From Escherichia coli (GTDB lineage Bacteria; Pseudomonadota; Gammaproteobacteria; Enterobacterales; Enterobacteriaceae), in NCBI RefSeq assembly GCF_003991155.1, contig NZ_CP031293.1: 64,000 nucleotides of DNA. One strand, written 5' to 3'. Under the pieces are notes generated by a model, which saw nothing but the letters and a program-made list of their open reading frames with translations, was not told the DNA's origin and made no database searches. Shown here piece by piece: positions 10,048 through 46,620 of the stretch (within the stretch, counting starts at the first letter, position 1; each line of letters opens with the position of its first letter). The translations under genes and the position numbers were made by a program.

Positions 10048-10080
10048 CCCCGCCAGCTATAATCGCGGGGCTTCGTTTTT
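10048..10080 (+). terminator. Rho-independent terminator after ykgJ
   Basis: CCCCGCCAGCTATAATCGCGGGG hairpin followed by CTTCGTTTTT. Confidence 0.5.
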
Positions 10081-10273
10081 CAGGGATAACAAAACCCGAA
10101 ACTTCTTCCATCTGCCAGCAACAATGCCTCTTCCTCTATAGTGTTCTCCGGATCTACAGCATCCTGAAGTAGCGCGATGTACTCACTGGCTATCTGCCAT
10201 CAGAAAGTTAAAAACAATGTTTTTAACCTATAAAAATGGCGCTGTATTTGCGCCATTTTTATCATTCAATGCA

Positions 10274-15885: not shown

Positions 15886-18612
15886 CTATTCCCATTCGCT
15901 AACATCTTTCATGCCACTGAGGGTAGCTACAATCCCGGCCCTTGTCAGTTTCACGAATTCTTCAGCCCCAACGGCATCACGAATTGCTTTCATGGCAATT
16001 TTATTGGCCGAAAATCGTTTCTCTGCTGCGGCGATCGCTGCTGGTGATGCCCCTGCGCGCACTGCTTTTGTAGCTTCCTGAACGGCTTTCTCTATCGCAT
16101 ATCGACCACTTCTTGTCGCCCCAATCTTAGCCACAGCATTTCTTAGCGCGCCACCAGCAACCAAACCACTAATCGAACCAATTACACCACCGCCAAAGCC
16201 TCCAGCGATCGCACCTGACTGTTGAACTCCGTTCATAATCACGCCGACGATCTTTGGAAGGCCTGAATCGAGCGTTTTGAGAGCCTCAGTTGTTCTTCCC
16301 GTGCGCTCTACGTATCGCTGCGGTCTGGTACTGGCTTTAGCGAGTACACCGAACTCTTTCATCATTCTACCGAGATCTGGCGCATGACGACTGATGGCGT
16401 TTACATTCTGCTGGGTCATGAGCTTGGCAAAATACTGGATACCTGACTCTTCACCGATTCCTCCCTTCTCTCCCTGCGCCACAGCATGCTGAAGAATAGA
16501 TGCTATTGCAGGTTGGCGTTCTGCTTCCGGCAGCGCGGAGATAAGACGGTGAAAAGCTCCCGTTCCAGTGTTTGCGGATGCCTTAAGCGTATCGGCACCT
16601 TTTCTTACCATAGCGTCTGATGCGAGATCTCGACCAAAAACAGATTCGGCATTTTGTTTGGCGATAATGTAACTTTTAGAGAGATCGTTAGCTTTCTGCC
16701 ATTCTGTGAGGAAGTTTCCTTTTTCAGCCATGATGCGCATGTCATCAGTGATAGCTCTGCGCATTTCTCCGGCAATCCGGGCGGCATTGGCCTTACCTGC
16801 CCGGGTGTTTGCTTGTTCAGCATCAGCAAACTTAGCACGCCATGCCTTCATCCCGTCGAAGGTTATGCCGCCACCTTGGTTGTTGGCAGCCTGAAACTGT
16901 TTCATCTCCGGGCTGAGTGGAACATTGGCTGCTTTTTCTGCTTGGACGACAGCCATCCCATTACTCATTTTCATCCTTTCGCGTGGCATCGTGCTTCGCA
17001 GTTCTGCCCATGCCATATTCTCTGCTGTTTTCATATCACTGAGGCTCGCGATGATGCGCTCTTTAATTGCTGCGCTTTTTTCTGATGCGCTTCCAGACTC
17101 AGCACCGAAATCAGACAACTGCTTATTCAACTTTGAGGATATTTCATTGAAGGCCGTAAGGTGAGCATCCTGAACATTCCCAGGAGTTGATGCCAGAACA
17201 CCTTCTGCTTGGGCAATTCCACGACTACCTGAGCGCATTCCAGGCGTCAGGGTGTTGATATTAATACCAGTGATTTTCGCCGCCTTAGCGACATCATCTC
17301 TGACGTTTGATGCCTGCGATGCGATATGCTCTCGGCCTACGGCAGAACGCGCTGCTTTCGATACATCATTGGCGGTTTCCAGAGTATTTGCTGCCCCTAA
17401 CACATGGCCTGATTGATTTGTATTACTCCGCAATACATCTCGCATTACGTCACTGGCTGTCTGTCCGCTCTTTATTAAAGCGCGTGCTCCTAGCGATCCT
17501 GCTAGGCCAATACCTGTCTCTTTTGCTAGGTCTTCTGGGCTGATCTGCCCGTTCTTTTGGGCGTTCACCAATGTACCTGGCAGGTTTTCTGCCAACATAC
17601 TAGCCACCTTTGTGGCCGCACGTTCAGCACGTGGAGCGTTGGCAACTGAAGAAGCTGCGGTAGCTGCCTTTCCTGCACCTAATCCTGTAATAAGGTAAGG
17701 TGCTAGCTGCTCACCAGCCTGCGCGTATGGATCTGTAGGTTGGTCTACTGGGCGAAAGACAGGTGATATGGGCGTGTATGTGCCATCACCCACACCAAGC
17801 TTCTGAGCTGCCCATGCTCCGGCTGATTGCGCCGCATTGACTACCCCCACGCCTGCGTCCATTACATCAAACGGTATATTAGCAATCCCTCTGGCCATCT
17901 GCTCTGGCGCAGCTTTCAGTCCTGGCGAAAGATATTCCATCTCAGGATTAAGGTTAGACTTGGCTACTTGCTGCTGCGGTTCCCCGGCATTTTCATCGGC
18001 GAGAAACTGAGCTCTTTTCTGCTCCCATGAACTGGCTGTTGGTAGTCCTGCTTCTATGTTCTTAAATTGCTGACGTTTTGCTTCCCATGCAGAAATATCT
18101 CCCACCTGAGAGATTTCTTTATCAAGCTCTGAGTAGTCAGGCTGCTGAAGATTGCGATGTTGACTGGTTTGTGCAAACTGCAAGATTTCACTGTCATCAG
18201 GGATTATTCCGGCATCTGCAAATTTACTTACGTAATTAGCCGTTTCATCTGGCAGTGTAGATTTACCGTTTCTGACGGCATTAATACGAGCATAGCCAGA
18301 ATTATACCCAGCCAATGCCATACCTATATCACCAAATCGCTTCATTCCTTTATTGAGATGGTTTGCTGCGATATCCATTTGCTTTTCAAATGGCAGTGAG
18401 CGCGGATCTGTTCCACGATAACCAGCATCACTCATTACTGAGGGCATCAGTTGAGCAAATCCTCTAGCTCCTTTCGGTGACTCGGCACTTCCGTTACCAC
18501 TAGATTCATTGCCAACTAATGTTTCCATCGTCCCTGATGGGAAACCATATTTTTCATCGAGATGACGGGAATAGGCTTTCTGTTTTTCTGTCAGTTGTGC
18601 CATCATTGCCAT
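15886..18612 (-). CDS. Large Ala-rich protein with N-terminal lytic transglycosylase (SLT) motif; phage internal virion/ejection protein-like
   Basis: 908 aa; N-terminus contains ESSGNG...GFAQLMPS...AGYNSGYARI (family-1 LT ES / GLMQ / AYNxG motifs); rest is long Ala/Gly-rich. Confidence 0.6.
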   Translation of the reverse strand: MAMMAQLTEKQKAYSRHLDEKYGFPSGTMETLVGNESSGNGSAESPKGARGFAQLMPSVMSDAGYRGTDPRSLPFEKQMDIAANHLNKGMKRFGDIGMALAGYNSGYARINAVRNGKSTLPDETANYVSKFADAGIIPDDSEILQFAQTSQHRNLQQPDYSELDKEISQVGDISAWEAKRQQFKNIEAGLPTASSWEQKRAQFLADENAGEPQQQVAKSNLNPEMEYLSPGLKAAPEQMARGIANIPFDVMDAGVGVVNAAQSAGAWAAQKLGVGDGTYTPISPVFRPVDQPTDPYAQAGEQLAPYLITGLGAGKAATAASSVANAPRAERAATKVASMLAENLPGTLVNAQKNGQISPEDLAKETGIGLAGSLGARALIKSGQTASDVMRDVLRSNTNQSGHVLGAANTLETANDVSKAARSAVGREHIASQASNVRDDVAKAAKITGININTLTPGMRSGSRGIAQAEGVLASTPGNVQDAHLTAFNEISSKLNKQLSDFGAESGSASEKSAAIKERIIASLSDMKTAENMAWAELRSTMPRERMKMSNGMAVVQAEKAANVPLSPEMKQFQAANNQGGGITFDGMKAWRAKFADAEQANTRAGKANAARIAGEMRRAITDDMRIMAEKGNFLTEWQKANDLSKSYIIAKQNAESVFGRDLASDAMVRKGADTLKASANTGTGAFHRLISALPEAERQPAIASILQHAVAQGEKGGIGEESGIQYFAKLMTQQNVNAISRHAPDLGRMMKEFGVLAKASTRPQRYVERTGRTTEALKTLDSGLPKIVGVIMNGVQQSGAIAGGFGGGVIGSISGLVAGGALRNAVAKIGATRSGRYAIEKAVQEATKAVRAGASPAAIAAAEKRFSANKIAMKAIRDAVGAEEFVKLTRAGIVATLSGMKDVSEWE

Positions 18613-19922
18613 CCCTTAAGTTTTGCCTGATAGTAACTTTCCGGCAGATAGCCATGTGCGGTCACATAATCCTTAACCAGTGAAGGATCCTGCAACAGCA
18701 TTTTGGTATCAGTTTCTTCGTCCTTAGATTTGGTTACAGGAATACCGAGCCCGGCAATCTGTCGTTTCTGCATTCGAATAATTACGTCCTGCGCTTTATT
18801 CAACTCTCGCAAAAATGCCTCATTGCTGGTTGCTGACTTAATGCCATTTTGAGATTGCATAAGGGCAGCCCTTTCCCCTTCGGTTGGGTTAGAGCCAAAA
18901 GTCCCTTTGAGGCTAGGCAGAATAACCTTTAGGTTGTATTCATCAGCTTTGGCGCGTAGGCTTCGTGTGTCTTCTGCTACATCAGGAAGGAATCCAAACC
19001 CCAGCGTCAGGGGGTTATAGTTCTGCGAGCGGGTAACGGCCGAAGGATGTTTCCCTACAATTCCCGCCAGTTCATGACCCACTTCAAGCGCAGAGTTCAA
19101 GGAGTCGATGTTACCTACAACAGTATTAATTTTATCGTTCATCTTCTCCACTTTCGCCTGCTGTACCTTGCTCAGTTCAGCATTGAGCTTGTCTCTCTCG
19201 ATGTCATTTTGAGCACGTCCAAGTCGTGCTTTCAGAACCATTTCTCTCGTGCGTAGTTGGTTATCGGATAGGACTTTGAACTGCTCCATATCGAGACGTC
19301 GATTACCCTGTTCCGCATTAACCTGAGCATTATATGCGGATGTATCTGCGTTCTGCTGTGCAATGCTCTGCCCTTGCTGCTTCTCTTGAACACTAAAGTA
19401 ACTATTTGGATCAGCATGGAGGTGGATGAGGTCAGTGATTCTGTTGAATTCCTGTGGGTCATTCTGCCAAGACTGATAAACCTCTTCAGCAGGAAGACCA
19501 AATCGCTGTAATACTGGATTTGCCTGCTGAATGGCCTTCTGCATGGTCAGTGGATCTCCAGTTTGTGACGCAAGACGCAGATTCATGGCAGCGTCAGCGG
19601 TCTGTCGATTTTGCTCAGCATCAATGAATCCCATCTGTTTTTGAGAATCAGCCATAAACTGGGGATACTGGGCCATTAACTTCTGCACGCCAACACGATC
19701 ATTATTAGCTACCGCACTACCCAACCGTGCCTGATATTCTTTTAACTGCTGGGAAATTTGCGCCTGCTGATTAATCTCAGCAACGCCTCTTAGCCCCTGT
19801 AGCGCCATTAAACCTACGTTTGGCTGCTGCTGATACTGCACAGGCTGAGGAACGGAAGAACGAGGAGCATTATCATTTTGCGGTGCCATGCTAGGCAGCC
19901 CGCCAAGTTGCCATGTCGCCAT
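18603..19922 (-). CDS. Gln-rich coiled-coil protein, ejection-protein-like
   Basis: 439 aa; overlaps downstream gene start (operon). Confidence 0.45.
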   Translation of the reverse strand: MATWQLGGLPSMAPQNDNAPRSSVPQPVQYQQQPNVGLMALQGLRGVAEINQQAQISQQLKEYQARLGSAVANNDRVGVQKLMAQYPQFMADSQKQMGFIDAEQNRQTADAAMNLRLASQTGDPLTMQKAIQQANPVLQRFGLPAEEVYQSWQNDPQEFNRITDLIHLHADPNSYFSVQEKQQGQSIAQQNADTSAYNAQVNAEQGNRRLDMEQFKVLSDNQLRTREMVLKARLGRAQNDIERDKLNAELSKVQQAKVEKMNDKINTVVGNIDSLNSALEVGHELAGIVGKHPSAVTRSQNYNPLTLGFGFLPDVAEDTRSLRAKADEYNLKVILPSLKGTFGSNPTEGERAALMQSQNGIKSATSNEAFLRELNKAQDVIIRMQKRQIAGLGIPVTKSKDEETDTKMLLQDPSLVKDYVTAHGYLPESYYQAKLKGWQ

Positions 19923-20599
19923 TAGAATCCAAGCCCCCCAACAAGACCAATAAGCCCACCACCAATAGCGCCGGCCGCAGTTCCTATTCCAGGAACAACG
20001 GAACCAAGTTGCGCACCCGCTAAAGCGCCTGATGCTGCCCCACCAATACCACGCGCAAGACTGGATGGCTGCTGCGCCTGACCTGCACGAATAGCGCCAA
20101 GCCCCTGCAAGAGTTGTCCGGTATTATTGGCGTAGTTTTGCCCTGCCGTTGCCTGCCCTGATGCCGCATTCATCCCGACATTTAGCAGGTTTCCATAATT
20201 TTGCATTTGCCCACTAAGCCAATTGTTATAAAGCATGGGCGCAATGGAAGATAACTGGTTACTGGTAGCTGTTGAGCCAAGCCCCCCGGTAGCTTCTGCT
20301 GAGACAAGGTTCTGATAACGGGCCTGATCTGCCTGTGTTTTATATAAACCAGAACCAAAGAAATCATTCGCGGCTTTATTCTGCCCTTCCAGAGTCATCA
20401 GTCCTTGCAGTTGTTGTAAAGCAGGCAATCCGACTTCTGCATACGGCTTGAGATTATTCATCACCGTATTCCACTGCTCGCGCTGCAAATCAATTGCCTG
20501 CTGCTGGGCCTTCGCCTGAGCTTTAGAGGCACCACCATCACCGCCTTTTTCGTATACGGCACGATTGAGATGTTTATGAGCTATATGGGTAATTAACAT
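19922..20599 (-). CDS. Gly/Ala-rich protein with hydrophobic C-terminus, ejection-protein-like
   Basis: 225 aa; C-terminal GxxxG-rich hydrophobic segment; contiguous with neighbours. Confidence 0.45.
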   Translation of the reverse strand: MLITHIAHKHLNRAVYEKGGDGGASKAQAKAQQQAIDLQREQWNTVMNNLKPYAEVGLPALQQLQGLMTLEGQNKAANDFFGSGLYKTQADQARYQNLVSAEATGGLGSTATSNQLSSIAPMLYNNWLSGQMQNYGNLLNVGMNAASGQATAGQNYANNTGQLLQGLGAIRAGQAQQPSSLARGIGGAASGALAGAQLGSVVPGIGTAAGAIGGGLIGLVGGLGF

Positions 20600-21054
20600 T
20601 CGCTGAATTCCTTATATTGTTGCCGAGTTAACTGATAAAGCGTTACGCCGACGGGTTTACCACATCTGATATAAGCATCATCAAGGTGACCAACACGGGT
20701 AGCGCCAAGCAAACGGATAATTGCCCGTCCATATTTTGTGGTGTCAGGAACCATAGTGATGCTGTTAAGGAATGGTGAGTTTTCGAGAAGCCATTTGCAG
20801 AATAATCGATGCCCTTGCAGTGCATATTCACCACGGAATCCGGGGTCGTACACCGCATGGCATTCAACAACGCTATGCCAGAAGTTACGCACTTCATGAA
20901 CGCCAGCCAGCACTAATCCTTCGTAGATGCCGAGATATACCGCATCAGGCTTGATGTAGTACGTGTGCCCCGGCTCAACAATATTTTCGGTATTGCCTGG
21001 CTCGTTAAGAAAGGCCTGTAATCGCACAGGGTTATCAATAAATTTTAGTTCCAT
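20593..21054 (-). CDS. Hypothetical protein (153 aa), first large gene of the module
   Basis: ORF-track; overlaps next gene start. Confidence 0.4.
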   Translation of the reverse strand: MELKFIDNPVRLQAFLNEPGNTENIVEPGHTYYIKPDAVYLGIYEGLVLAGVHEVRNFWHSVVECHAVYDPGFRGEYALQGHRLFCKWLLENSPFLNSITMVPDTTKYGRAIIRLLGATRVGHLDDAYIRCGKPVGVTLYQLTRQQYKEFSEC

Positions 21055-21817: not shown

Positions 21818-24577
21818 TCATTCTTCAGATGAGTTATAATCTCCTGGCTGGTAATTGAGTACATAAACGTTTATTTGTCGTCCCTGAATACGTGGTGATT
21901 TTCTTTGGTATCCACGACCGCTGTTTGGTGGGGTTAGCATCCCGGCTTTTTTCAACACTTCAGCAAACTGTTTTGCGTTGAAACCACATGCGATCTCCTT
22001 TTCAAATGTGGCCGGGAATGTGTAGAAAATCATTGGGCTTTCGTCATGTTCTCCACGCTGACGGTATCCGGCTAAATCTTTGATGGGCAAATCTGCCGGG
22101 CTGTATGGAAATGGTGCAAAACGGCTAAGCCCATAGGCATTAAGAAATGCCTCCGTTTGTTCAATAATCTGCTGATGCTCTTTGTTACCTGTGCCGAACT
22201 CGCGCAACCATGCGTTATAGCTGTGCTGTATCGCATCACGGCATGTCTGAGCATCCCAGCCTGTTACAACCTCGCCTAACAACAATGCGGCCTCCAGAAT
22301 GGCAAATCGCGCGGCTACACGGTGAACCTGCTCACCATAATCGGATGGGATCAGGCTTCTCCATCTGCTTTCGCAATCACGAACGGTTTTAATAGCCTGT
22401 TGCTGGTGGTGTGCCAGCCATTTAATCCACTCACGCCCGGACGCGCCGTGGTGATGCTGGTAAGCGTCTTTCAGTGCGTCTGCGTGCTGTTTTCCGTTCT
22501 GGTAATCGTGAAAGCGTACTGCTTTACTCAACGGAATATTCAGCAGTCGCACCAGTTGCCCGGCTTTGGTTTTTCGCCCGGAAGTAGCGATAAATGTTTC
22601 TAAATCCATTTCTCCGGTGCTGATTGCCACTGTACGCCAGCGTTTTAGATCCCGGTTTCCACCATCTTTAGCGCCTTGCAGTTTCCCTACACCGTTAAAT
22701 AACGCATAGGCAGACTGTGAAACGCTGACAGGATCAGCGCCCTGACCAACTTCATCAAGCGGCATTAGTCCGTCATTGTGGGCGGCGGCCTCATTTGCCA
22801 GCCCCAGCGCGGTTCCGTACCACGTCAGCCGCAGTAAATCAGGGTTGCCGTATAAGCTGCTCGCCACGTTTGCCGTGGTGGTCTTACCTGCGCTCGACTG
22901 CTCATAGAAATGAATGCCGAACCCGTCAGCGCCCACCAGCCCAATCAATGGCGCTGCCAGTGCTGCGCCGATCCCGGTCATCATTGAATAGTTACCAAAG
23001 GCCAGACGCGCCACGTTATCACGCCAGCTTTTCGCGCTCCCTGAGACGGTATATCCGGCTGCGGCTGAGCTTCTCCCGCTGAACAGCACAGGATTTTCAG
23101 GTGTTCCGATGATTTCCCCATCAGGCATGATGTACGCTCCGCATTGCCAGCCAGTGGCATGAGCAACACGCCACAATTCACGAGAGCCACTGCGTTGTAG
23201 CCAGTCTGCCAGTATTGCTCTGAGGCTGCTTTTGGTCGTGACATTTACCCCACCAGCTTTAAGTGTGCGCCATCCTTCACGTTCACCAATATCAGCCAGT
23301 GGAATGGCAGCGGTTGTCGGCGTTTCAGAACCAAACGACAGCCAGCGAAGAATGAGATACTGGTCTTTATCGTCTCTGCCAGTACCGATAACGCTTAACG
23401 GAGAACATAACCAGCTTTCGTTATTGATGATTTCTCCACTCTGGCTGTCAGCTCTCGGAGATACCCAATAAATACCATCCTCGCGGCTTTCTATTCTTGG
23501 TTTCAGTGGGTCGGTATCCATAACCTTAAAATCGCTTCCCTCAATGGTCTGTGGCTCCTGTTTCACGCCATTACCCTGTGGTTGGTACATTGACTTATTG
23601 AACGCTTCTGTGGCGCATTTAATGCCGTGTTTTTGGTGGTAATCATTCCAGTCTGCTTTGTGATCTGTCGGGGGTAATGCCACCCATCCAGAAACAGATA
23701 AAGCTGCTTTTTCTGCTGCTATTCTCCCCGTGTTTTGTCTTCCTTCGCTGTGGTCGTTATCCGCAGCAATGATGATTTGTGCTGAAGGAAATTTATCCCG
23801 CAGTACCTGGGCGACATATAACAGGTTCCCGGCATCAATCGCCGCCACTGTCAGCGCCTCTGGACGAATTAAATGGGCAGATAATGCCGTTGCCAGACCT
23901 TCTGCGATTAAGATGCTCTGTGTTGTTTCTGGTGCGTTTATGGCGTGATATGCCCCCCGCTTTGCTGAACCTGTCAGGAGTCTTTTTTCACCATGTGAGG
24001 TAATAGTCTGTGCTGCTGTGACTGCGCCGGATTTATCCACCAGCGCCAGCAACAGAGATCCATCGGGCAACACGGGGAATGTAAAATCACCTACCCCTTT
24101 CGCAACCAGATAATCAGATTTGCCGTTTACAGCCTTTCTGCGCATGTCATCAAACTGACGGGAAAACGTATCCCGTCTTTGTTGTTCGTCCTTCTCTGCC
24201 CTTTTCAGGCGCTCCTGTTCGCGTCGCTGGCGCTCGGTTTCCAGTTGTTCCCGTTTCTGGCTGGTGGCTTCTGGTGTTTCCGTTGTCCGGTAATCAATAC
24301 CCAGAACATCAGCGGCAAGAAGCGCCGCCTCTGTTGTGTCGCAGTTATTTACGCGTTTAATTAAATCCAGCCCATCACCAGCGCCGCACTGATTACAGAT
24401 GAAGCTACCGCGCCCGTTGTCATCGAACCGGAATCGATCTTTGCCCCCACATGCAGGGCAGGGAGCATGACGGCGCGGAGAGTCAGGGACATTTATGTTC
24501 AGGCAGCCCAGCACATGAGGCCAGTTGTTTTCAGACGCACTGATAACCTGACGGATAAGATCAATGTTTCGCATCAC
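21818..24577 (-). CDS. P4 alpha-like primase-helicase (zinc finger + toprim + P-loop NTPase)
   Basis: 919 aa; CPACGG..CNQCG zinc-binding motif, toprim-like IIIAADNDH, Walker A SSAGKTTT and Walker B LMPLDEV. Confidence 0.8.
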   Translation of the reverse strand: MMRNIDLIRQVISASENNWPHVLGCLNINVPDSPRRHAPCPACGGKDRFRFDDNGRGSFICNQCGAGDGLDLIKRVNNCDTTEAALLAADVLGIDYRTTETPEATSQKREQLETERQRREQERLKRAEKDEQQRRDTFSRQFDDMRRKAVNGKSDYLVAKGVGDFTFPVLPDGSLLLALVDKSGAVTAAQTITSHGEKRLLTGSAKRGAYHAINAPETTQSILIAEGLATALSAHLIRPEALTVAAIDAGNLLYVAQVLRDKFPSAQIIIAADNDHSEGRQNTGRIAAEKAALSVSGWVALPPTDHKADWNDYHQKHGIKCATEAFNKSMYQPQGNGVKQEPQTIEGSDFKVMDTDPLKPRIESREDGIYWVSPRADSQSGEIINNESWLCSPLSVIGTGRDDKDQYLILRWLSFGSETPTTAAIPLADIGEREGWRTLKAGGVNVTTKSSLRAILADWLQRSGSRELWRVAHATGWQCGAYIMPDGEIIGTPENPVLFSGRSSAAAGYTVSGSAKSWRDNVARLAFGNYSMMTGIGAALAAPLIGLVGADGFGIHFYEQSSAGKTTTANVASSLYGNPDLLRLTWYGTALGLANEAAAHNDGLMPLDEVGQGADPVSVSQSAYALFNGVGKLQGAKDGGNRDLKRWRTVAISTGEMDLETFIATSGRKTKAGQLVRLLNIPLSKAVRFHDYQNGKQHADALKDAYQHHHGASGREWIKWLAHHQQQAIKTVRDCESRWRSLIPSDYGEQVHRVAARFAILEAALLLGEVVTGWDAQTCRDAIQHSYNAWLREFGTGNKEHQQIIEQTEAFLNAYGLSRFAPFPYSPADLPIKDLAGYRQRGEHDESPMIFYTFPATFEKEIACGFNAKQFAEVLKKAGMLTPPNSGRGYQRKSPRIQGRQINVYVLNYQPGDYNSSEE

Positions 24578-24932
24578 CGTACCCCACGTGGTCTATAGCG
24601 TTTGCGATATGGCTAACCAGCATCTGCCACTTGGTTATTCCGTAATCAGTCAGCATGCCATCATTGTTTAGCCACATATCAAATTCAGCGGTTGTCGCAA
24701 GTTTCCACTTATCGCCGTGGACAGTCCTCATTGCTGGGTACATGAATGCGCAAATCAGATCACAAACATCTGACGGCTTCAGAGATGTAGTAATGGTGCG
24801 TCCCTCTGGCGTCTGAATTGCCATTTTCTCTTCACCAGTAGAATGAAGGTTATGAATCCACACAGCACCAGCAATCTTTGCCACCTGCTCTCCGATTGCG
24901 GAGCTAAGCGCCATTTCTGCATTTTCACGCAT
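24561..24932 (-). CDS. Hypothetical protein (123 aa)
   Basis: ORF-track; overlapping stops/starts with neighbours. Confidence 0.35.
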   Translation of the reverse strand: MRENAEMALSSAIGEQVAKIAGAVWIHNLHSTGEEKMAIQTPEGRTITTSLKPSDVCDLICAFMYPAMRTVHGDKWKLATTAEFDMWLNNDGMLTDYGITKWQMLVSHIANAIDHVGYGDAKH

Positions 24933-25266
24933 GAGAACCTCCCGCTACAGTTGCGCCCATGTCATTAACCATGCTTTGCCATATCTCACGCCCGACGTCA
25001 GTCAATCCGTCCTTAGTGACGCAACGTTCAAGAAGCTCGATCCCCACGGTTTCCCACTGCGGGTAGAACACTTTCATGGCTGCCAGTGTGTAGCTATCGA
25101 TCAGGCTGCGAACGCCTTTTACTCCATTGACGATTTCCACACGGACGGCCTCGCCGTCCGCATCAACCATGAAATAGTCCCCGCCGCTGGTGGAGGTAAT
25201 GTGGTTATACAGTGCCGACGCATACTTATTTGCCAGCGCATTCAGTCGGAAATTTTTAGTAATCAT
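24925..25266 (-). CDS. Hypothetical protein (113 aa)
   Basis: ORF-track. Confidence 0.35.
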   Translation of the reverse strand: MITKNFRLNALANKYASALYNHITSTSGGDYFMVDADGEAVRVEIVNGVKGVRSLIDSYTLAAMKVFYPQWETVGIELLERCVTKDGLTDVGREIWQSMVNDMGATVAGGSHA

Positions 25267-25276
25267 GGCTCCATCC

Positions 25277-25879
25277 TCAGTGCGTCACTGGTTCCGCTGG
25301 CATGCCGTTTTCATTCAGTTCAGCTATAAAGCTGTTGTGAAGTTCAGCAAGCGTTTCACGCCCAAATGGAGTCAGTGCTCCTTGTTCCACATCCATCATG
25401 GCTCTGTAGAAAATAATGGCGCGTTCTGTGCCAGACTCGATGCCAAAACGTTCTATCATCGCGCCCTCAATGTTGTTTGCCATAGCGAGGCGCTCTGCTA
25501 CTGGATACAGCGGCATGGCGACGATGCCGTTGGAATAAACAGCCACTTCGGAAGGATTGCCAGTATCATCAATGATGCTGACAGTGCCGTTTTCCTCTCT
25601 CATTTCCAGCATGAATACTGTTGCGATCAGCCATCTCCACATAATGACGTTATGCTGTGATGTGTAATCGAAATATCCCTGGTTACCGCCATCGGCAATA
25701 GCGAGATGTATTGACATACCTTCATCTGGTTTATCGTCATAATCCCCGGCATCCAGACGATTTACGGCATCAATATATGAGATGGCCTCAACGCGTTCTG
25801 TCATGCCATCGTTGCTGCGGTACATGATGTTTACGCCGTCAGGCGTTGCTTCTGCATGGAAAGTTAAGAAATTATTCAT
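25277..25879 (-). CDS. Hypothetical protein (about 200 aa)
   Basis: ORF-track frame 25277..25984; likely start at internal Met (MNNFLTFHAE...). Confidence 0.35.
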   Translation of the reverse strand: MNNFLTFHAEATPDGVNIMYRSNDGMTERVEAISYIDAVNRLDAGDYDDKPDEGMSIHLAIADGGNQGYFDYTSQHNVIMWRWLIATVFMLEMREENGTVSIIDDTGNPSEVAVYSNGIVAMPLYPVAERLAMANNIEGAMIERFGIESGTERAIIFYRAMMDVEQGALTPFGRETLAELHNSFIAELNENGMPAEPVTH

Positions 25880-26093
25880 GTTTCGCCTCGCCTGAATGAT
25901 TCTGTAACTCATATTTGCCCAACAATTCGTCCGCTTCCTGAATAGCTTCTGGTACGCCATTGAGCAGTGACATAACCGCGCCAATCATTAACTTGTCTCT
26001 GTTGCTGGGGCTGGCCCCTTCAAGCCAGAACCCTAAAACAGTCTGAACCTGTTCGATGCGACATTGCGCTTCAATGAGCTGGATGTTGGTCAT
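25872..26093 (-). CDS. Hypothetical small protein (73 aa)
   Basis: ORF-track; 4-nt overlap with upstream gene. Confidence 0.3.
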   Translation of the reverse strand: MTNIQLIEAQCRIEQVQTVLGFWLEGASPSNRDKLMIGAVMSLLNGVPEAIQEADELLGKYELQNHSGEAKHE

Positions 26094-26353
26094 TTCGCAC
26101 TCTCCACATCGATTAAACCGATATCTATCAGGGAGGTAACTTTTTGTAGCCAGCTATTGATTACTGTCGCCTGTTCCCCTCCCACCGAGGGAACAATCTC
26201 ATTCATCACATGAACCAGACCTGTGCGCGCTCTGGTAAGCCGTTCAGTCGCGCAATCTGCGGGAGTGAATGTGTCTGGATATGGCTCTTCACGCCCCAGC
26301 AATGATTCAATTTCCAGCTCACACGGATGACGATAAATTAAGTTGATATTCAT
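26090..26353 (-). CDS. Hypothetical small protein (87 aa)
   Basis: ORF-track; ATGA-type overlaps. Confidence 0.3.
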   Translation of the reverse strand: MNINLIYRHPCELEIESLLGREEPYPDTFTPADCATERLTRARTGLVHVMNEIVPSVGGEQATVINSWLQKVTSLIDIGLIDVESAK

Positions 26354-26544
26354 TTTTCACCCCCAAGAATTACCAGCTCGGCACGGGCATCGTTAACCAA
26401 AGATGAGCACGCTTTAATCGCATCCACGACATCAGCAGCGTCCATTTCTTCAGCCGAAAGACTGACAGCAACCAGGACAGCCGCTGCTTGCTCGATTAAT
26501 TGAAGTGCGGACGTAAGTCGAGGGGCATTAATTGAGTTATTCAT
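26350..26544 (-). CDS. Hypothetical small protein (about 64 aa)
   Basis: Internal start [10 protein letters not shown]... in track ORF 26350..26601. Confidence 0.3.
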   Translation of the reverse strand: MNNSINAPRLTSALQLIEQAAAVLVAVSLSAEEMDAADVVDAIKACSSLVNDARAELVILGGEK

Positions 26545-27604
26545 TGGTTGCCCCCGTTTTTCCTGGCATTTCGCCACCTTCCAGCAGGAAATGAACGTCA
26601 CGAACGGCGAGATCCAATATCGCGAGTAACGCCTTCAGTCTTTCGTCTCGTGAGGGAGAGTTGCTCACCAGAATGTCGTTAATCACTTCTGTCAGTGTGA
26701 TGATCTGGCTTGTGCGTTCGAGGGGATCCATATGCACATCGTAGGTTTTAATCATGAGCCACCTCCATGCGGATACGACCAGCAAAAAAGCAGACGTGAT
26801 CGCGCACCAGAGAACGGCGAGCATCGCGTTCAGACTCGGCAGCAATATGATGAATTTTGGCGGTAATTGTCGAGCAATCGCGGCGAACTGCGGCGATAAT
26901 CCAGATAAATTGCGGTTTTTGGGTAGGGGTAGTAGCCAGCATGTGGCAGCCTCCATTCGATAGCATGTAACGCTACCACCGGAAACGCCAATTTCGCTGG
27001 TGGTAGCCCAGACAGGGTTGGCGTAACCGGCTCGAATGGATACCGGCGCTTCCGAAGAAGCCCCTGCCTGAGCCACCATTGATTGACAAAGGCGCTGGAT
27101 TATACACCAACGCCCAAAAAATGGGTGAGTCAGACCTACGACATAAAAAAAGACGCTCGGCGCGTCATATGTCGCCATTCGATTTACTAGGACGCCAATC
27201 CCGGCACCCGTTTTATGAGGTGCCTTATAACCATAAACCGTGTTGCCGCATAACGGCAAGCTCTTTTTTATGGACTCCGAAAACTCGCTATTGGAAGCAC
27301 CAGATGCACAGTACATCGCGCTCATTTCGTTAACGTCACGCGCGTGGACGAATGTTTTTGTGGAGTCACTACACGAGCGGAAGACATCATCTACGACCAG
27401 AAATTTTCTGGCGCAGCCGCTGACCTTCTCAATGCTAATATCATCGCCCGAGATTTCTGATATGGTTAAGGCATCCGTTCCGACCACCAGCAAATGATAA
27501 ACTTTGCTTGTATCTGCTGTATTAATGCCTGACTTTGCCGTCATATTGCTGGATTTTGGCGACATACCAGCCAGTGAAAATGTCTTCTTCTGGACGGTTA
27601 GCAT
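26537..27604 (-). CDS. Long open frame of uncertain gene structure (possibly a 72-aa gene 26537..26755 plus upstream gene)
   Basis: 355 codons without stop; composition atypical in middle part; start overlaps stop of upstream gene. Confidence 0.25.
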
Positions 27605-27780
27605 TTGTTAACCTCCGCGAACTCCTTCATGAAACGCGCCAGCGGTTGTACGCATGGCGATTGATACCCGTCGCGATAAAACGTCACTCGGTTGTGAGAC
27701 ACGCTTTCGACAGTAACGAGTGCTCCGTGGGCATCTTTGTAGCGTTTTTGTGGTTGTGGTGTTCCTGTTGGCTTAGACAT
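27598..27780 (-). CDS. Hypothetical small protein (about 60 aa)
   Basis: Internal start MSKPTGTPQPQKRYKD... with GGAGGTG Shine-Dalgarno upstream. Confidence 0.3.
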   Translation of the reverse strand: MSKPTGTPQPQKRYKDAHGALVTVESVSHNRVTFYRDGYQSPCVQPLARFMKEFAEVNKC

Positions 27781-28606
27781 TGACCACCTCCAGACGCTTG
27801 GCGAGCCAGCGTTGCGACAGGCGGGTGAGTTCTCCTTTGCGCTGCTCATATTCCATGCCCATATCAATTAACGTGATATTGGTGCTTTCGAGATATGAGA
27901 GGTGCTCAAGCTGTTCTGCGTTCATATGGTCGCGAGGTTCGCCAGAATAGCCATTTATCCGCGCCCACTGCTTAGCAGTTAGCCCACCAAGAACGATACG
28001 AGAAATCATATTGCTCTCGTTTGTGTAGTGGTGTTGCTGCGTCGTTTTACCCATCTCGGCACGGGCCATATTCAGCGCATCGCACATTGGCTTAAAGTTG
28101 TTTGCGGCACTGAGACGGGCTTTTAGCTGGCGACGATAGCGGGCGGCGATTTCAGGCACGCTACGCTGTAATTCTTCCTCGCACTGGATGAAATAACGGC
28201 GGATAGCGCGACCCTGATCATTGCGTTCGATCATTGCCAGTTCTTTCGCCATTCCGACACTTAACAGATAGTCTTTGCCGGGTCTGCCAGAGTGCTTTAT
28301 CTTGCTGTAAGCCGCGCCATTCGGGCTTTTCCCCAAATTTGGGGAAATTGTTTTATGGACTGAGTAATCGTGCCCAATGGTGAAGTCATATTCAGAGATG
28401 CGATCAGTGATCCATGTAGAGAAGTCTTTTCCCACGCCCAACGCTTTGTGTAACGCTTTTGCGCTAACAATATTGGTTTCACGCCCACCGATATGACCAG
28501 GAATAACCGGGACAATTGCGGCAAATTCATTACCGTTAATTGTGCTCAGAGAGGCGTTCAGATGAGGGGCGGCCTCAGAAATTAATCTGCTTTTTTCGAT
28601 GTTCAT
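27773..28606 (-). CDS. Phage antirepressor-like protein (AntA/KilAC-type)
   Basis: 277 aa; N-terminus ..INGNEFAAIVPV.. and ..DYLLSVGMAKELAMIERNDQGRAIRRYFIQCEEE.. resemble antirepressor domains. Confidence 0.5.
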   Translation of the reverse strand: MNIEKSRLISEAAPHLNASLSTINGNEFAAIVPVIPGHIGGRETNIVSAKALHKALGVGKDFSTWITDRISEYDFTIGHDYSVHKTISPNLGKSPNGAAYSKIKHSGRPGKDYLLSVGMAKELAMIERNDQGRAIRRYFIQCEEELQRSVPEIAARYRRQLKARLSAANNFKPMCDALNMARAEMGKTTQQHHYTNESNMISRIVLGGLTAKQWARINGYSGEPRDHMNAEQLEHLSYLESTNITLIDMGMEYEQRKGELTRLSQRWLAKRLEVVNV

Positions 28607-28618
28607 TTTCAGTCTCCG

Positions 28619-29050
28619 TTAGGCGGCGTTAAACGCGTCCGGGTAGAGTTTCAGAATGTCGGCAATTTCCTGCTGAGAAAGTCCGTTGTGATCATTTATG
28701 TTCGCAAGATGGTTAATATGAGTGATCACTTTCAGAACATCACCACGGCAGGAGAAACGGTAGCGAAGGTGTGTTCCGATACCATCAGGATTCTTTTCGT
28801 CGATACGCTCCAGAGTGATTCCAAGCTGGCGTTCTAACTCTGTTGCATAGTTACGACCAGAAGACAGACGGCAGTAGCGAAGAATGTCATTTTCTGTCCA
28901 TCCCTCTATACCAGTACGCAGCATATAGACTCTGGCACGATGCTTTTTCGGTGTGCGCTTTGGTGCTTGAAGGGATTTTGTAAGGGGCGTAACATCAGAT
29001 ACACGAATATCTGAATTAGCCGCCTGTAATGGGCGGTTTTTCTTTTCCAT
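28619..29050 (-). CDS. Hypothetical protein (143 aa)
   Basis: ORF-track; immediately downstream of alpA. Confidence 0.35.
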   Translation of the reverse strand: MEKKNRPLQAANSDIRVSDVTPLTKSLQAPKRTPKKHRARVYMLRTGIEGWTENDILRYCRLSSGRNYATELERQLGITLERIDEKNPDGIGTHLRYRFSCRGDVLKVITHINHLANINDHNGLSQQEIADILKLYPDAFNAA

Positions 29051-29253
29051 CAGGCCACCTCGTCTCTAGATTCTAATATACACTTCTCAATCCATTCATC
29101 TATTTCAGACTCAACAAAAGCAATTGCCCGACTTCCAATTTTTACCTGTTTAGGGAACCTCCCCTGACTAATAAGACGATAAATCCATGCTTTGCTATAA
29201 CCAGTTCGCCTTTGAACTTCAGAGAGACGAATTAATGAATTGTAATTAGCCAT
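29050..29253 (-). CDS. alpA: AlpA-family transcriptional regulator/excisionase-like
   Basis: 67 aa MANYNSLIRLSEVQRRTGYSKAWIYRLISQGRFPKQVKIGSRAIAFVESEIDEWI; classic AlpA HTH. Confidence 0.75.
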   Translation of the reverse strand: MANYNSLIRLSEVQRRTGYSKAWIYRLISQGRFPKQVKIGSRAIAFVESEIDEWIEKCILESRDEVA

Positions 29254-29680: not shown

Positions 29681-30895
29681 TCATGCGTGTTTTTCAAACA
29701 CCATATGCACCACATTTCCGCCATGCTCGAGAGAATCCATATAGTCGGCATACCATTGAAGCATCTCCCGCCGTCCATCCAGATATTGCGCATGGTTGTA
29801 TGTGCCACGAATTGAGTTCTTATCAACGTGAGCGAGCTGCGTTTCTATCCACGCGGTGTTATAGCCCTGCTCATGCAAAATCGTGCTCATAGTGTGTCGG
29901 AACCCATGACCAGTTACACGTCCAGCGTAGCCAATGCGCTTAAACACTTGGTTTATGCTGGCCTCACTCATTGTTTTCCTTGGATCATTGCGCCCGGGAA
30001 ACATAAGAGGGTAATTGCCTGTTATTTCTCTAATCTTCCCAATAAGCGAAAGAGCCTGCTCAGACAATGGCACAATATGAGGCCGCCGCATTTTCATACG
30101 TGAAGCGGGTATCTCCCATATAGCCTTGTTGAAATCAATTTCATCCCATAATGCGCCACGTAGTTCGCCAGTTCGCAAGCCGGTGATAATCAGTAGACGA
30201 GCCGCCATAACAACCAATGCGCTTCCTGAGTAACTGGACAATGCCTTGAAAAAATCAGGTAATTCTTTGGTCGTAAGGAAAGGGTAATGATTAGATTCAT
30301 GGCCTTGCATCGCGCTAGTAAGGTCTGGTGCAGGGTTATACTCTGCGCGACCAGTGACTATTGCATAGCGGAAAACTTCCCCGCACCGCTGCCTCACTTT
30401 TTTGGCTTTTTCTGTCGCACCGCGCCCCTCGATGCGCCGCAGCACATTCAGAAGTTCAAGTGGTTTGATTTCGGCGATTGGTTTTTTGCCAATGTAAGGG
30501 AACACATCTTTGTTGAAGGCTTCGAGGATGTCTGAAGCATAACCAGCAGACCATTTTTTTAATTTGCTGCTGTGCCACTCAAGGGCAATATCTTTGAAGG
30601 TGTTGTTTAACTGCGTTTCCCGGGCAATCTTTTCCTCTCGTTTCGCTTCCATCGGATCGATACCACCAGCGATACCTCTTTTCGCATCTTCACGTTTTGC
30701 CCGAGCATCGGCTAGAGTAACCTCAGGATACACACCTAGTGCCAATAGCTTCTCTTTACCAGCTACACGATATTTAAGTCGCCAGTATTTACCTCCATTA
30801 GGTTTTACCAAGAGATACAAACCGCCACCATCGGCCAGCTTGTAAGCCTTCTCTTTTGGCTTGGCTGTGTCTATTTGACGGGCATTGAGTTTCAC
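29681..30895 (-). CDS. P4-type tyrosine integrase, thrW-adjacent
   Basis: 404 aa; N-terminal arm-binding domain (..KLADGGGLYLLVKPNGGKYWRLKYR..) and catalytic HGFRHT...Y motifs; adjacent to tRNA. Confidence 0.85.
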   Translation of the reverse strand: MKLNARQIDTAKPKEKAYKLADGGGLYLLVKPNGGKYWRLKYRVAGKEKLLALGVYPEVTLADARAKREDAKRGIAGGIDPMEAKREEKIARETQLNNTFKDIALEWHSSKLKKWSAGYASDILEAFNKDVFPYIGKKPIAEIKPLELLNVLRRIEGRGATEKAKKVRQRCGEVFRYAIVTGRAEYNPAPDLTSAMQGHESNHYPFLTTKELPDFFKALSSYSGSALVVMAARLLIITGLRTGELRGALWDEIDFNKAIWEIPASRMKMRRPHIVPLSEQALSLIGKIREITGNYPLMFPGRNDPRKTMSEASINQVFKRIGYAGRVTGHGFRHTMSTILHEQGYNTAWIETQLAHVDKNSIRGTYNHAQYLDGRREMLQWYADYMDSLEHGGNVVHMVFEKHA

Positions 30896-31060: not shown

Positions 31061-31136
31061 TGGTGCCGATAATAGGAGTCGAACCTACGACCTTCGCATT
31101 ACGAATGCGCTGCTCTACCAACTGAGCTATATCGGC
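31061..31136 (-). tRNA. thrW: tRNA-Thr (anticodon CGU)
   Basis: Reverse complement GCCGATATAGCTCAGTTGGTAGAGCAGCGCATTCGTAATGCG...GGTTCGACTCCTATTATCGGCACCA. Confidence 0.9.
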
Positions 31137-46539: not shown

Positions 46540-46620
46540 GTAGGCATGATAAGACGCGCCAGCGTCGCATCAGGCATCGGTGCACAATTGCCGAATCCGG
46601 CGTGAACGCCCTCTCCGTCC
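46540..46620. repeat. REP elements
   Basis: GCATCAGGCATCGGTGCACAATTGCCGAATCCGGCGTGAACGCC REP-type palindromes. Confidence 0.55.

Follow-up and report, generated by a model that had tools for sequence, protein, structure and literature searches.

A probable P4-type antisense-RNA immunity switch in the open leader frame of the early operon of an Escherichia coli satellite island

P4-type immunity relies on CI-dependent premature, Rho-dependent termination, the CI RNA being matured by RNase P and PNPase. In the immI region of P1, the c4 RNA has an upstream target, a1/b1, and a downstream target, a2/b2, the latter lying over the ribosome-binding site (RBS) of an Icd-family gene, and the respective specificities of P1 and P7 are set by covarying loops. 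For P4, a secondary summary describes a transcript from an internal promoter that is processed into the CI RNA, Kil being translated only on read-through, and an eta frame that is translated and needed for this read-through (PMC10111431). According to the secondary literature, the immunity factor of P4 is the CI RNA and not the product of ORF137 (PMC10111431, PMC4825925). In Gifsy-1, IsrK, which is a structural homolog of P4 seqA, activates the translation of orf45-anrP, and orf45 is conserved in nucleotides but not in amino acids (PMC4825925). Finally, C4 and isrK matches occur in Gram-negative phage-inducible chromosomal islands (PICIs), in which four zones, Integration, Bro, Replication and Late, have been described (PMC10111431). 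Here, we analyse a stretch of 64,000 nucleotides of the Escherichia coli contig NZ_CP031293.1 (assembly GCF_003991155.1), hereafter called the window, which consists of chromosome with a satellite or PICI-like island integrated at the tRNA-Thr gene thrW. We focus on the dense array of minus-strand genes that runs from an AntA-family antirepressor gene to a primase gene and that includes a stop-free frame of 355 codons, the leader frame.

It is likely, in our view, that this region is the early (“left”) operon of the island and that it is placed under a P4-type antisense-RNA immunity switch located in the open leader frame. Indeed, the leader frame spans four embedded features (Table 1): a promoter resembling P4 PLE, an isrK/seqA-type RNA, a C4/CI-type RNA and the kil/icd gene, which is read in another frame. 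BLAST links the DNA of the window to P4, where the corresponding open reading frame (ORF) is recorded as “put. ash gene” or “cI gene product (AA 1-137)”. P4 shows the same succession of a long ORF with a promoter, an isrK match, a C4 match and then a 65-aa Kil, and both the 197-aa P4 Eta and the leader of the window match the Pfam family Phage_ASH. The likeness extends to the flanks: the ATGA of the long P4 ORF sits on the stop of ORF88, an AlpA homolog, and the leader of the window is likewise coupled to an upstream stop; in both systems kil/icd is the first translated gene and a primase closes the operon. A search with the Icd-like protein gave 61 IMG/VR loci, 54 unique regions of 600 nt and 39 distinct leaders. 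The order of the integrase, alpA, hyp143 (encoding a 143-aa protein), AntA, DUF4222, leader, small genes and primase is kept in the 61 loci.

Both RNAs are recognised by their Rfam families. The C4/CI-type RNA scores 79.5 bits on RF01695 (gathering score 45; model positions 1-87), on which P4 CI itself obtains 74.9 bits, and the isrK/seqA-type RNA scores 60.5 bits on RF01394 (gathering score 50). The expected C4 architecture, a long closing stem and two hairpins, is borne out by its three helices (5, 6 and 7), which are 100% paired in the 39 distinct relatives, with 12 of 27 pairs changed on both sides, and its 3′ end, ...ACCACCA, is tRNA-like. When the leader RNA of the window was folded and compared with shuffled sequences, a z of -6.3 was obtained and the C4 shape was recovered. 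For isrK, whose family has two 5′ hairpins followed by a 3′ intrinsic terminator, helices 1-3 are 94-100% paired in the same relatives, and a terminator scan found the terminator, made of a stem and a U run. Upstream of isrK, the putative constitutive promoter consists of TTGCCG and TATGGT separated by 18 nt and lies 6 nt from the RNA; at the homologous place, P4 has TTGCCT, 18 nt, TATAGT and 6 nt before isrK. The hexamers and their spacing are kept in relatives, and it is at the promoter that homology among relatives starts. Between C4 and the terminator of isrK there is also a conserved hairpin whose loop reads UAUAAU; P4 has none at that spot. In the register of most relatives its stem is 77.8% paired, with six of ten pairs changed on both sides; the register of the window is shifted by 1 nt with respect to most relatives and, owing to this shift, just 53% of the stem is paired across relatives in the other register. 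This hairpin could be a processing signal or, if C4 has a second promoter, could supply its -10 element.

These elements are linked by covariation. C4 exposes a recognition loop, b′, and a single-stranded segment, a′, and each has a counterpart both in isrK (b1 and a1) and in a downstream target region (b2 and a2) that is equivalent to P4 seqC and P1 a2/b2 and in which b2 overlaps the Shine-Dalgarno sequence of kil/icd. Over the 39 leaders, b′/a′ is 97.6% paired with b2/a2 (10 of 15 pairs compensatory, as against 28-43% pairing in slid controls) and 99.8% paired with b1/a1 (10 of 14 pairs compensatory); slid controls over both target pairings gave 28-45%. All three partners, C4, the isrK sites and the sites at the icd RBS, covary across relatives. 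The 39 leaders fall into 15 distinct b′/a′ specificity types, among them that of the window, AUCCAUUCGAG, and another, AUCCUUCAGAG, which provide ready material for the study of heteroimmunity between co-resident satellites. An initial annotation of this DNA had suggested that the small genes form a regulatory or interference module. The module is regulatory, but its regulatory part is carried by RNA (isrK/seqA and C4/CI, together with kil/icd) rather than by the small proteins.

The gene whose RBS is targeted belongs to the Icd-like family (NCBIfam NF033153; 2e-19, 69.3 bits with a cut-off of 25). It can be aligned with the P4 Kil region (43% identity), it evolves with a ratio of nonsynonymous to synonymous substitution rates (dN/dS) of 0.15 and it has a strong third-position bias. 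The conserved start codon (ATG at 26942) follows a GGAGG, and the P4 kil start has the same context, GGAGGCUGCC...AUG. On transcripts that begin at the internal promoter, no gene would be translated before this one. In 12 of the 54 relatives, which are P4-like in this respect, the leader shares the frame of icd and terminates at its stop. The remaining 42, to which the window belongs, have a shifted leader, which crosses icd in the +1 frame and terminates 172-211 nt further on, together with the following gene; the ATG of that gene overlaps the icd stop by 8 nt, or by 11 nt in three loci. Over icd, the +1 frame is free of stops in 42/42 shifted loci as against 5/12 in-frame loci, while the +2 frame contains about 2.2 stops in both groups. 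When icd codons are replaced by random synonymous ones, the +1 frame is open in about 44% of cases.

We then considered how the leader frame itself evolves, in an analysis of substitutions in up to 50 relatives. In the well-sampled real genes (hyp143, the antirepressor, DUF4222, icd, o200, o113, o123 and the primase), dN/dS is 0.13-0.23 and the third-position bias is strong. The leader behaves otherwise: substitutions at the first, second and third codon positions number 653/676/714 in the “ash” part (dN/dS 0.74) and 140/861/245 in the part that lies over icd (dN/dS 1.96); in the N-terminal part, for which eight close homologs only were available, the figures are ambiguous (66/25/68; dN/dS 0.48). 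The 106 codons of this N-terminal part have no family match in Pfam or PHROG, and only weak two-copy DNA repeats were found in them. Base composition gives the same contrast. In the real genes of the array, the GC content of the first codon position (GC1, 0.53-0.65) is well over that of the second (GC2, 0.32-0.47), whereas in the three leader segments without a nested gene the GC1/GC2/GC3 profile is flat or inverted (0.43/0.45/0.52, 0.54/0.52/0.50 and 0.49/0.51/0.59). The initial annotation had described this frame as atypical in composition and partly protein-like, and both descriptions hold. It lacks protein-level selection, and it ends in frame with a real gene, o72.

These data bear directly on the idea of a functional regulatory protein encoded by all of the 355-codon frame or by its “ash” part, as the labels of the NCBI annotation pipeline (PGAP), of PHROG and of the old P4 “cI gene product” record would have it. 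Leader residues 124-232 do match Pfam PF10554, Phage_ASH (3e-30, 105 bits with a gathering score of 26), several PHROG families labelled as transcriptional repressors or regulators match the translation of the RNA region, and the frame is conserved open behind a real Shine-Dalgarno sequence and ATG. However, the residues that match Phage_ASH coincide with the DNA of isrK and C4 and, more generally, the conserved “protein” residues coincide exactly with both RNAs and the promoter. Substitutions in this stretch are devoid of codon-position bias, so that what Phage_ASH describes appears to be RNA-gene DNA in translation. The even distribution of substitutions in the “ash” part and the high dN/dS over icd also argue against a protein product, as do the two ends of the frame. 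At the C-terminal side, the leader continues in the icd frame in 12 relatives and in the other frame, into at least four unrelated proteins, in 42. At the N-terminal side, relatives fall into six unrelated low-complexity groups. In addition, the P4 immunity factor is itself described as an RNA and not the ORF137 product. Altogether, a regulatory protein appears very improbable here.

Nonetheless, the frame is kept open. An ORF of 195-364 codons begins upstream of the promoter in nearly all relatives, and the block formed by the promoter and the RNAs is stop-free in the leader frame in 52 of the 54 unique relatives, the other two frames containing 1-7 stops. Indels of 39 and 42 nt, both multiples of three, preserve the frame. 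The stretch that precedes the promoter (44-115 codons) is open in each of its six unrelated groups, the other frames having about 5-9 stops per 100 codons. In 50/54 relatives, the leader begins at an ATG that sits on the stop codon of the gene before it and has a GGAGG Shine-Dalgarno sequence 7 nt upstream; the window conforms to this, its ATG at 27604 overlapping the stop of DUF4222 (GGAGGttaacaaATGcTAA). The leader frame is thus open without selection at the amino-acid level, and fits neither an ordinary protein gene nor plain non-coding DNA. Judging from its sequence, it is the counterpart of P4 eta.

We lean slightly towards the view that this frame persists solely as a ribosome track: what would be selected is uninterrupted translation from the upstream operon, through the promoter, the terminator, the antisense RNA and kil, and not the product. 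The protein made from it is probably irrelevant. Such a role would explain why the leader has drifted in frame relative to kil and why it ends in at least four unrelated downstream genes. The opposite view, that the leader is never translated and is open merely because the conserved RNAs and promoter happen to be stop-free, agrees with the lack of amino-acid-level selection, with the constrained RNA that makes up much of the frame, with the roughly 44% chance of an open +1 frame that the Icd protein allows, and with the pseudogene flag that PGAP placed on the frame in an identical genome. We nevertheless regard it as unlikely: it accounts neither for openness through non-homologous N-terminal sequences, nor for the coupled start behind GGAGG, the indels in multiples of three and the fully open +1 frame over icd where the leader continues, as compared with 5/12 elsewhere. 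P4 eta is, moreover, reported as translated and needed for read-through (PMC10111431).

If the locus works as P4 and P1 do, two modes of transcription can be proposed. A transcript from the internal promoter would first yield the isrK/seqA RNA with its intrinsic terminator, and read-through would carry the C4/CI RNA. By analogy with P4 and P1, the processed C4/CI RNA would pair with the sites in isrK and at the icd RBS, and this pairing would block kil/icd translation and cause premature termination, so that the small genes and the primase would be silent in the quiescent island. Transcription from the upstream operon (alpA, antirepressor and DUF4222) would have another outcome. As the open frame and the P4 eta model suggest, ribosomes would move from DUF4222 to the leader through the ATG/stop overlap, cross the promoter, the isrK terminator, C4 and kil/icd, and finish at the o72 stop. 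The RNA would then be unfolded and covered by ribosomes, so termination would fail and the chain of overlapping genes would be expressed through the primase. It appears that a known switch, based on an RNA immunity determinant and escaped by translated read-through, controls the replication module of this PICI-like satellite.

A Gifsy-1-like mode of action was also considered, in which isrK would act in trans as an activator or a decoy, opening an inactive read-through mRNA or titrating C4, so that at times of stress the first ORF downstream would be translated along with the genes coupled to it. The isrK-family match has its own terminator, as in Gifsy-1, where a processed C4-like RNA follows inside an ORF, and in both loci the RNA-bearing ORF is conserved at the nucleotide and not at the amino-acid level. 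The activation of orf45-anrP by IsrK provides a precedent (PMC4825925) and b1/a1 shares its specificity with b2/a2, so isrK could compete for C4. However, in Gifsy-1 the short RNA activates a prophage antirepressor, whereas the layout and the downstream cargo of the window are P4-like: homology and gene order are nearer to P4, the leader aligns with that of P4, the operon ends in a primase and not in an antirepressor, and the antirepressor gene lies upstream of the switch, outside its control. A Gifsy-1-like mode therefore seems distinctly unlikely, although it and the P4 model are not mutually exclusive.

Several points weigh against a P4-type switch with a translated leader and temper our confidence. 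Promoter activity, RNA processing, Rho-dependent termination and leader translation are all steps that we infer, the P4 model being taken from a secondary summary. The PLE-like promoter was not picked up by a generic consensus promoter scan, as 8 of its 12 consensus positions match. The published detail of a kil nested in frame in eta fails here, kil/icd being out of frame with the leader. The sequences are related and the effective lineages far fewer than 42, so the significance of the avoidance of +1 stops over icd is modest, and the pattern is suggestive rather than decisive. Finally, none of the eight small proteins has a family, defence-system or structural match that indicates a function.

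The window also departs from P4 in other respects than the frame of kil, which is out of frame in the window and in 42/54 relatives. Its leader is about 100 codons longer upstream of the promoter, and its upstream neighbours are DUF4222 and AntA instead of an AlpA homolog. Its small genes occupy the place of P4 epsilon, which serves in helper derepression, ORF151 and ORF106, without detectable similarity to them; the Pfam “Derepression” (epsilon) family matches P4 but none of the small proteins of the window. Nor does the island look like a P4-like satellite in the strict, capsid-size-redirecting sense, which is defined by sid, psu and delta: none of these is named in the RefSeq annotation 12 kb on each side, no dedicated search of the whole window having been made for them, and P22-type ejection proteins fill the late zone instead. 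With P1 and P7 immI, the locus shares an RNA of the Rfam C4 family, an Icd-family gene and equivalents of the a1/b1 and a2/b2 targets. It differs in what follows icd: the antirepressor gene ant, coupled to icd, in P1/P7, the genes from o72 to the primase in the window, where the AntA-family gene lies upstream. It resembles Gram-negative PICIs by its int/alpA pair, its AntA gene and eta-like gene with C4/isrK, its primase and its captured phage late genes; a thrW island, DUF4222 and an ejection-protein cargo are absent from the text of PMC10111431.

Downstream of kil/icd, the chain continues with o72, whose ATG overlaps the icd stop (ATGATTAA) and which has its own GGAGG Shine-Dalgarno sequence; its homologs in relatives are 37-53% identical. 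In loci L002-L062, the slot right after icd holds one or another of at least four unrelated families of small proteins, each with an ATG that overlaps the icd stop, and this slot looks like a swap-in cargo position. More generally, relatives differ in the genes that they carry between icd and o200. Homologs of o64, o87 and o73 with 25-56% amino-acid identity occur in many relatives; those of o87, o73, o200 and o113 are present in most (25-80% identity), and those of o72 and o64 in fewer. The small proteins are real products of the early operon, and o200, o113 and o123 show the substitution patterns of proteins. The switch-controlled operon closes with the gene for the primase, which has 32% amino-acid identity with P4 alpha and is its positional counterpart.

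The three proteins that precede the primase may be related to one another. The C-terminal half of o200, together with o113 and o123, shows a similar order of predicted secondary structures and hhalign P values of about 1e-3 to 4e-3, and o113 and o123 match each other by BLASTP (E = 5e-4). Paralogy between these three sequences is weakly supported. AlphaFold models of o200, o113 and o123 (predicted local distance difference test, pLDDT, 90) suggest that they likely share one domain made of a beta-hairpin and a helical bundle, with no informative match in the PDB or BFVD.

The architecture of the array is as dense as the initial annotation had indicated. Nine minus-strand genes fill the interval from the antirepressor to the primase, in addition to the 355-codon frame, and a Shine-Dalgarno sequence of the GGAGG or GGGGG type precedes every downstream ATG. 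From the antirepressor to the primase, the junctions consist of overlaps of 8, 7, 8, 8, 4, 4 and 8 nt, a gap of 10 nt, and overlaps of 8 and 14 nt; such start/stop overlaps of 4-14 nt, with their Shine-Dalgarno sequences, are consistent with the translational coupling that had been suspected. The assignment of the island to a satellite type is likewise borne out by a PICI-like order of zones at thrW. By contrast, the claim that these genes have no recognisable homologs does not stand, as DUF4222, the Icd-like and Phage_ASH sequences, o200, o113 and o73 all match families and 254 genomes cover at least 80% of the stretch. The long plus-strand ORFs that had been noted over the leader frame do exist; as genes they were rejected, having no Pfam or PHROG family match and no RefSeq annotation. 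Two findings had been named in advance as speaking against the module, a non-coding long frame and unconserved small ORFs. We obtained the first but not the second, because the downstream small ORFs show protein-like substitution or protein-level homologs.

Table 1. Coordinates of the island features discussed in the text, in the numbering of the window
Feature	Coordinates	Strand	Remarks
tRNA-Thr(CGU)	31061-31136		beside proA; island adjoins the tRNA
Integrase	29681-30895	minus	
AlpA-family helix-turn-helix protein	29050-29253	minus	
143-aa protein (hyp143)		minus	between the AlpA-family gene and the antirepressor gene
AntA-family antirepressor	27773-28606	minus	directly upstream of DUF4222
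DUF4222 gene	27598-27780	minus	Pfam PF13973, 6e-25; dN/dS 0.13; closes the upstream “Bro zone” operon
Long leader frame	26537-27604	minus	355 codons, stop-free
Leader segment, N-terminal	27604-27287		
Leader segment, “ash” part	27286-26969		
Leader segment over icd	26968-26756		
Putative constitutive promoter (P4 PLE homolog)	27230-27259	minus	TTGCCG 27259-27254; TATGGT 27235-27230
isrK/seqA-type RNA	27146-27223	minus	
isrK target site a1	27193-27198		in hairpin loop
isrK target site b1	27175-27182		
isrK terminator stem	27152-27166		
Hairpin with UAUAAU loop	27091-27114	minus	
C4/CI-type antisense immunity RNA	26996-27083	minus	
C4 recognition loop b′	27032-27040		
C4 segment a′	27018-27023		
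Downstream target region	26950-26991	minus	
Target site a2	26986-26991		
Target site b2	26952-26960		kil/icd Shine-Dalgarno GGAGG at 26950-26954
kil/icd	26748-26942	minus	64 aa from the conserved ATG; PGAP: 26748-26966, 72 aa
o72	26537-26755	minus	72 aa; forms the in-frame 3′ end of the leader frame
o64	26350-26544	minus	RefSeq: hypothetical protein
o87	26090-26353	minus	RefSeq: hypothetical protein
o73	25872-26093	minus	phrog_20558; RefSeq: hypothetical protein
o200	25277-25879	minus	phrog_1515, 2e-47; dN/dS 0.20
o113	24925-25266	minus	phrog_37628, 1e-49; dN/dS 0.17
o123	24561-24932	minus	dN/dS 0.13
Primase	21818-24574	minus	zinc ribbon, Toprim and DUF927 (Pfam); dN/dS 0.14
DUF2824 gene	20593-21054	minus	late zone of the island
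P22_gp7 gene	19922-20599	minus	late zone; E = 7e-73
Inj_translocase/gp20-like gene	18603-19922	minus	late zone
908-aa protein with SLT lytic transglycosylase domain	15886-18612	minus	late zone

The type of switch described here was already known from P4, and what we add to it, a kil gene read out of frame and comparative evidence that selection on the leader favours openness and coupling over any product, is modest. The comparative data provide independent support, drawn from sequence only, for the P4 model in which translation prevents termination. They also resolve a stretch that RefSeq records as a pseudogene of an “ash family protein” on 26969-27604 (NZ_CP091026, L001 14409-15044), where neither isrK nor C4 is annotated. 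As related sequences are found in 1294 of 5426 complete E. coli genomes, the same misreading recurs widely. If the leader is indeed a track for ribosomes, then the residues conserved in Phage_ASH, in the “ash family protein” of PGAP and in several PHROG “repressor” families would be dictated by RNA. If the switch operates as proposed, the E. coli satellites, with their many types of covarying loops, would form a large set whose members are heteroimmune to one another.

The island that harbours this operon has all its genes on the minus strand. The 3.2-kb stretch of the array is 100% identical in E. coli STEC383; among the 5426 complete E. coli genomes, 254 cover at least 80% of it and the 1294 mentioned above have partial matches. 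No candidate attR was found, as a second copy of the tRNA-Thr 3′ end is missing from positions 1-31136 of the window with up to 3 mismatches allowed, which leaves the far boundary of the island undefined. Past the primase, the late zone (15886-21054) carries a P22-type set of ejection proteins, and the presence of its own ejection proteins in a satellite points to a P22-like helper. Genes of the PerC and pRiA4b ORF-3 families are found further along. Outside the island core, two Rfam matches were recorded on the minus strand: IS009 at 10067-10268 (191.7 bits), and naRNA4/CssrE at 46543-46620, with a score (60.4 bits) barely over the gathering score.

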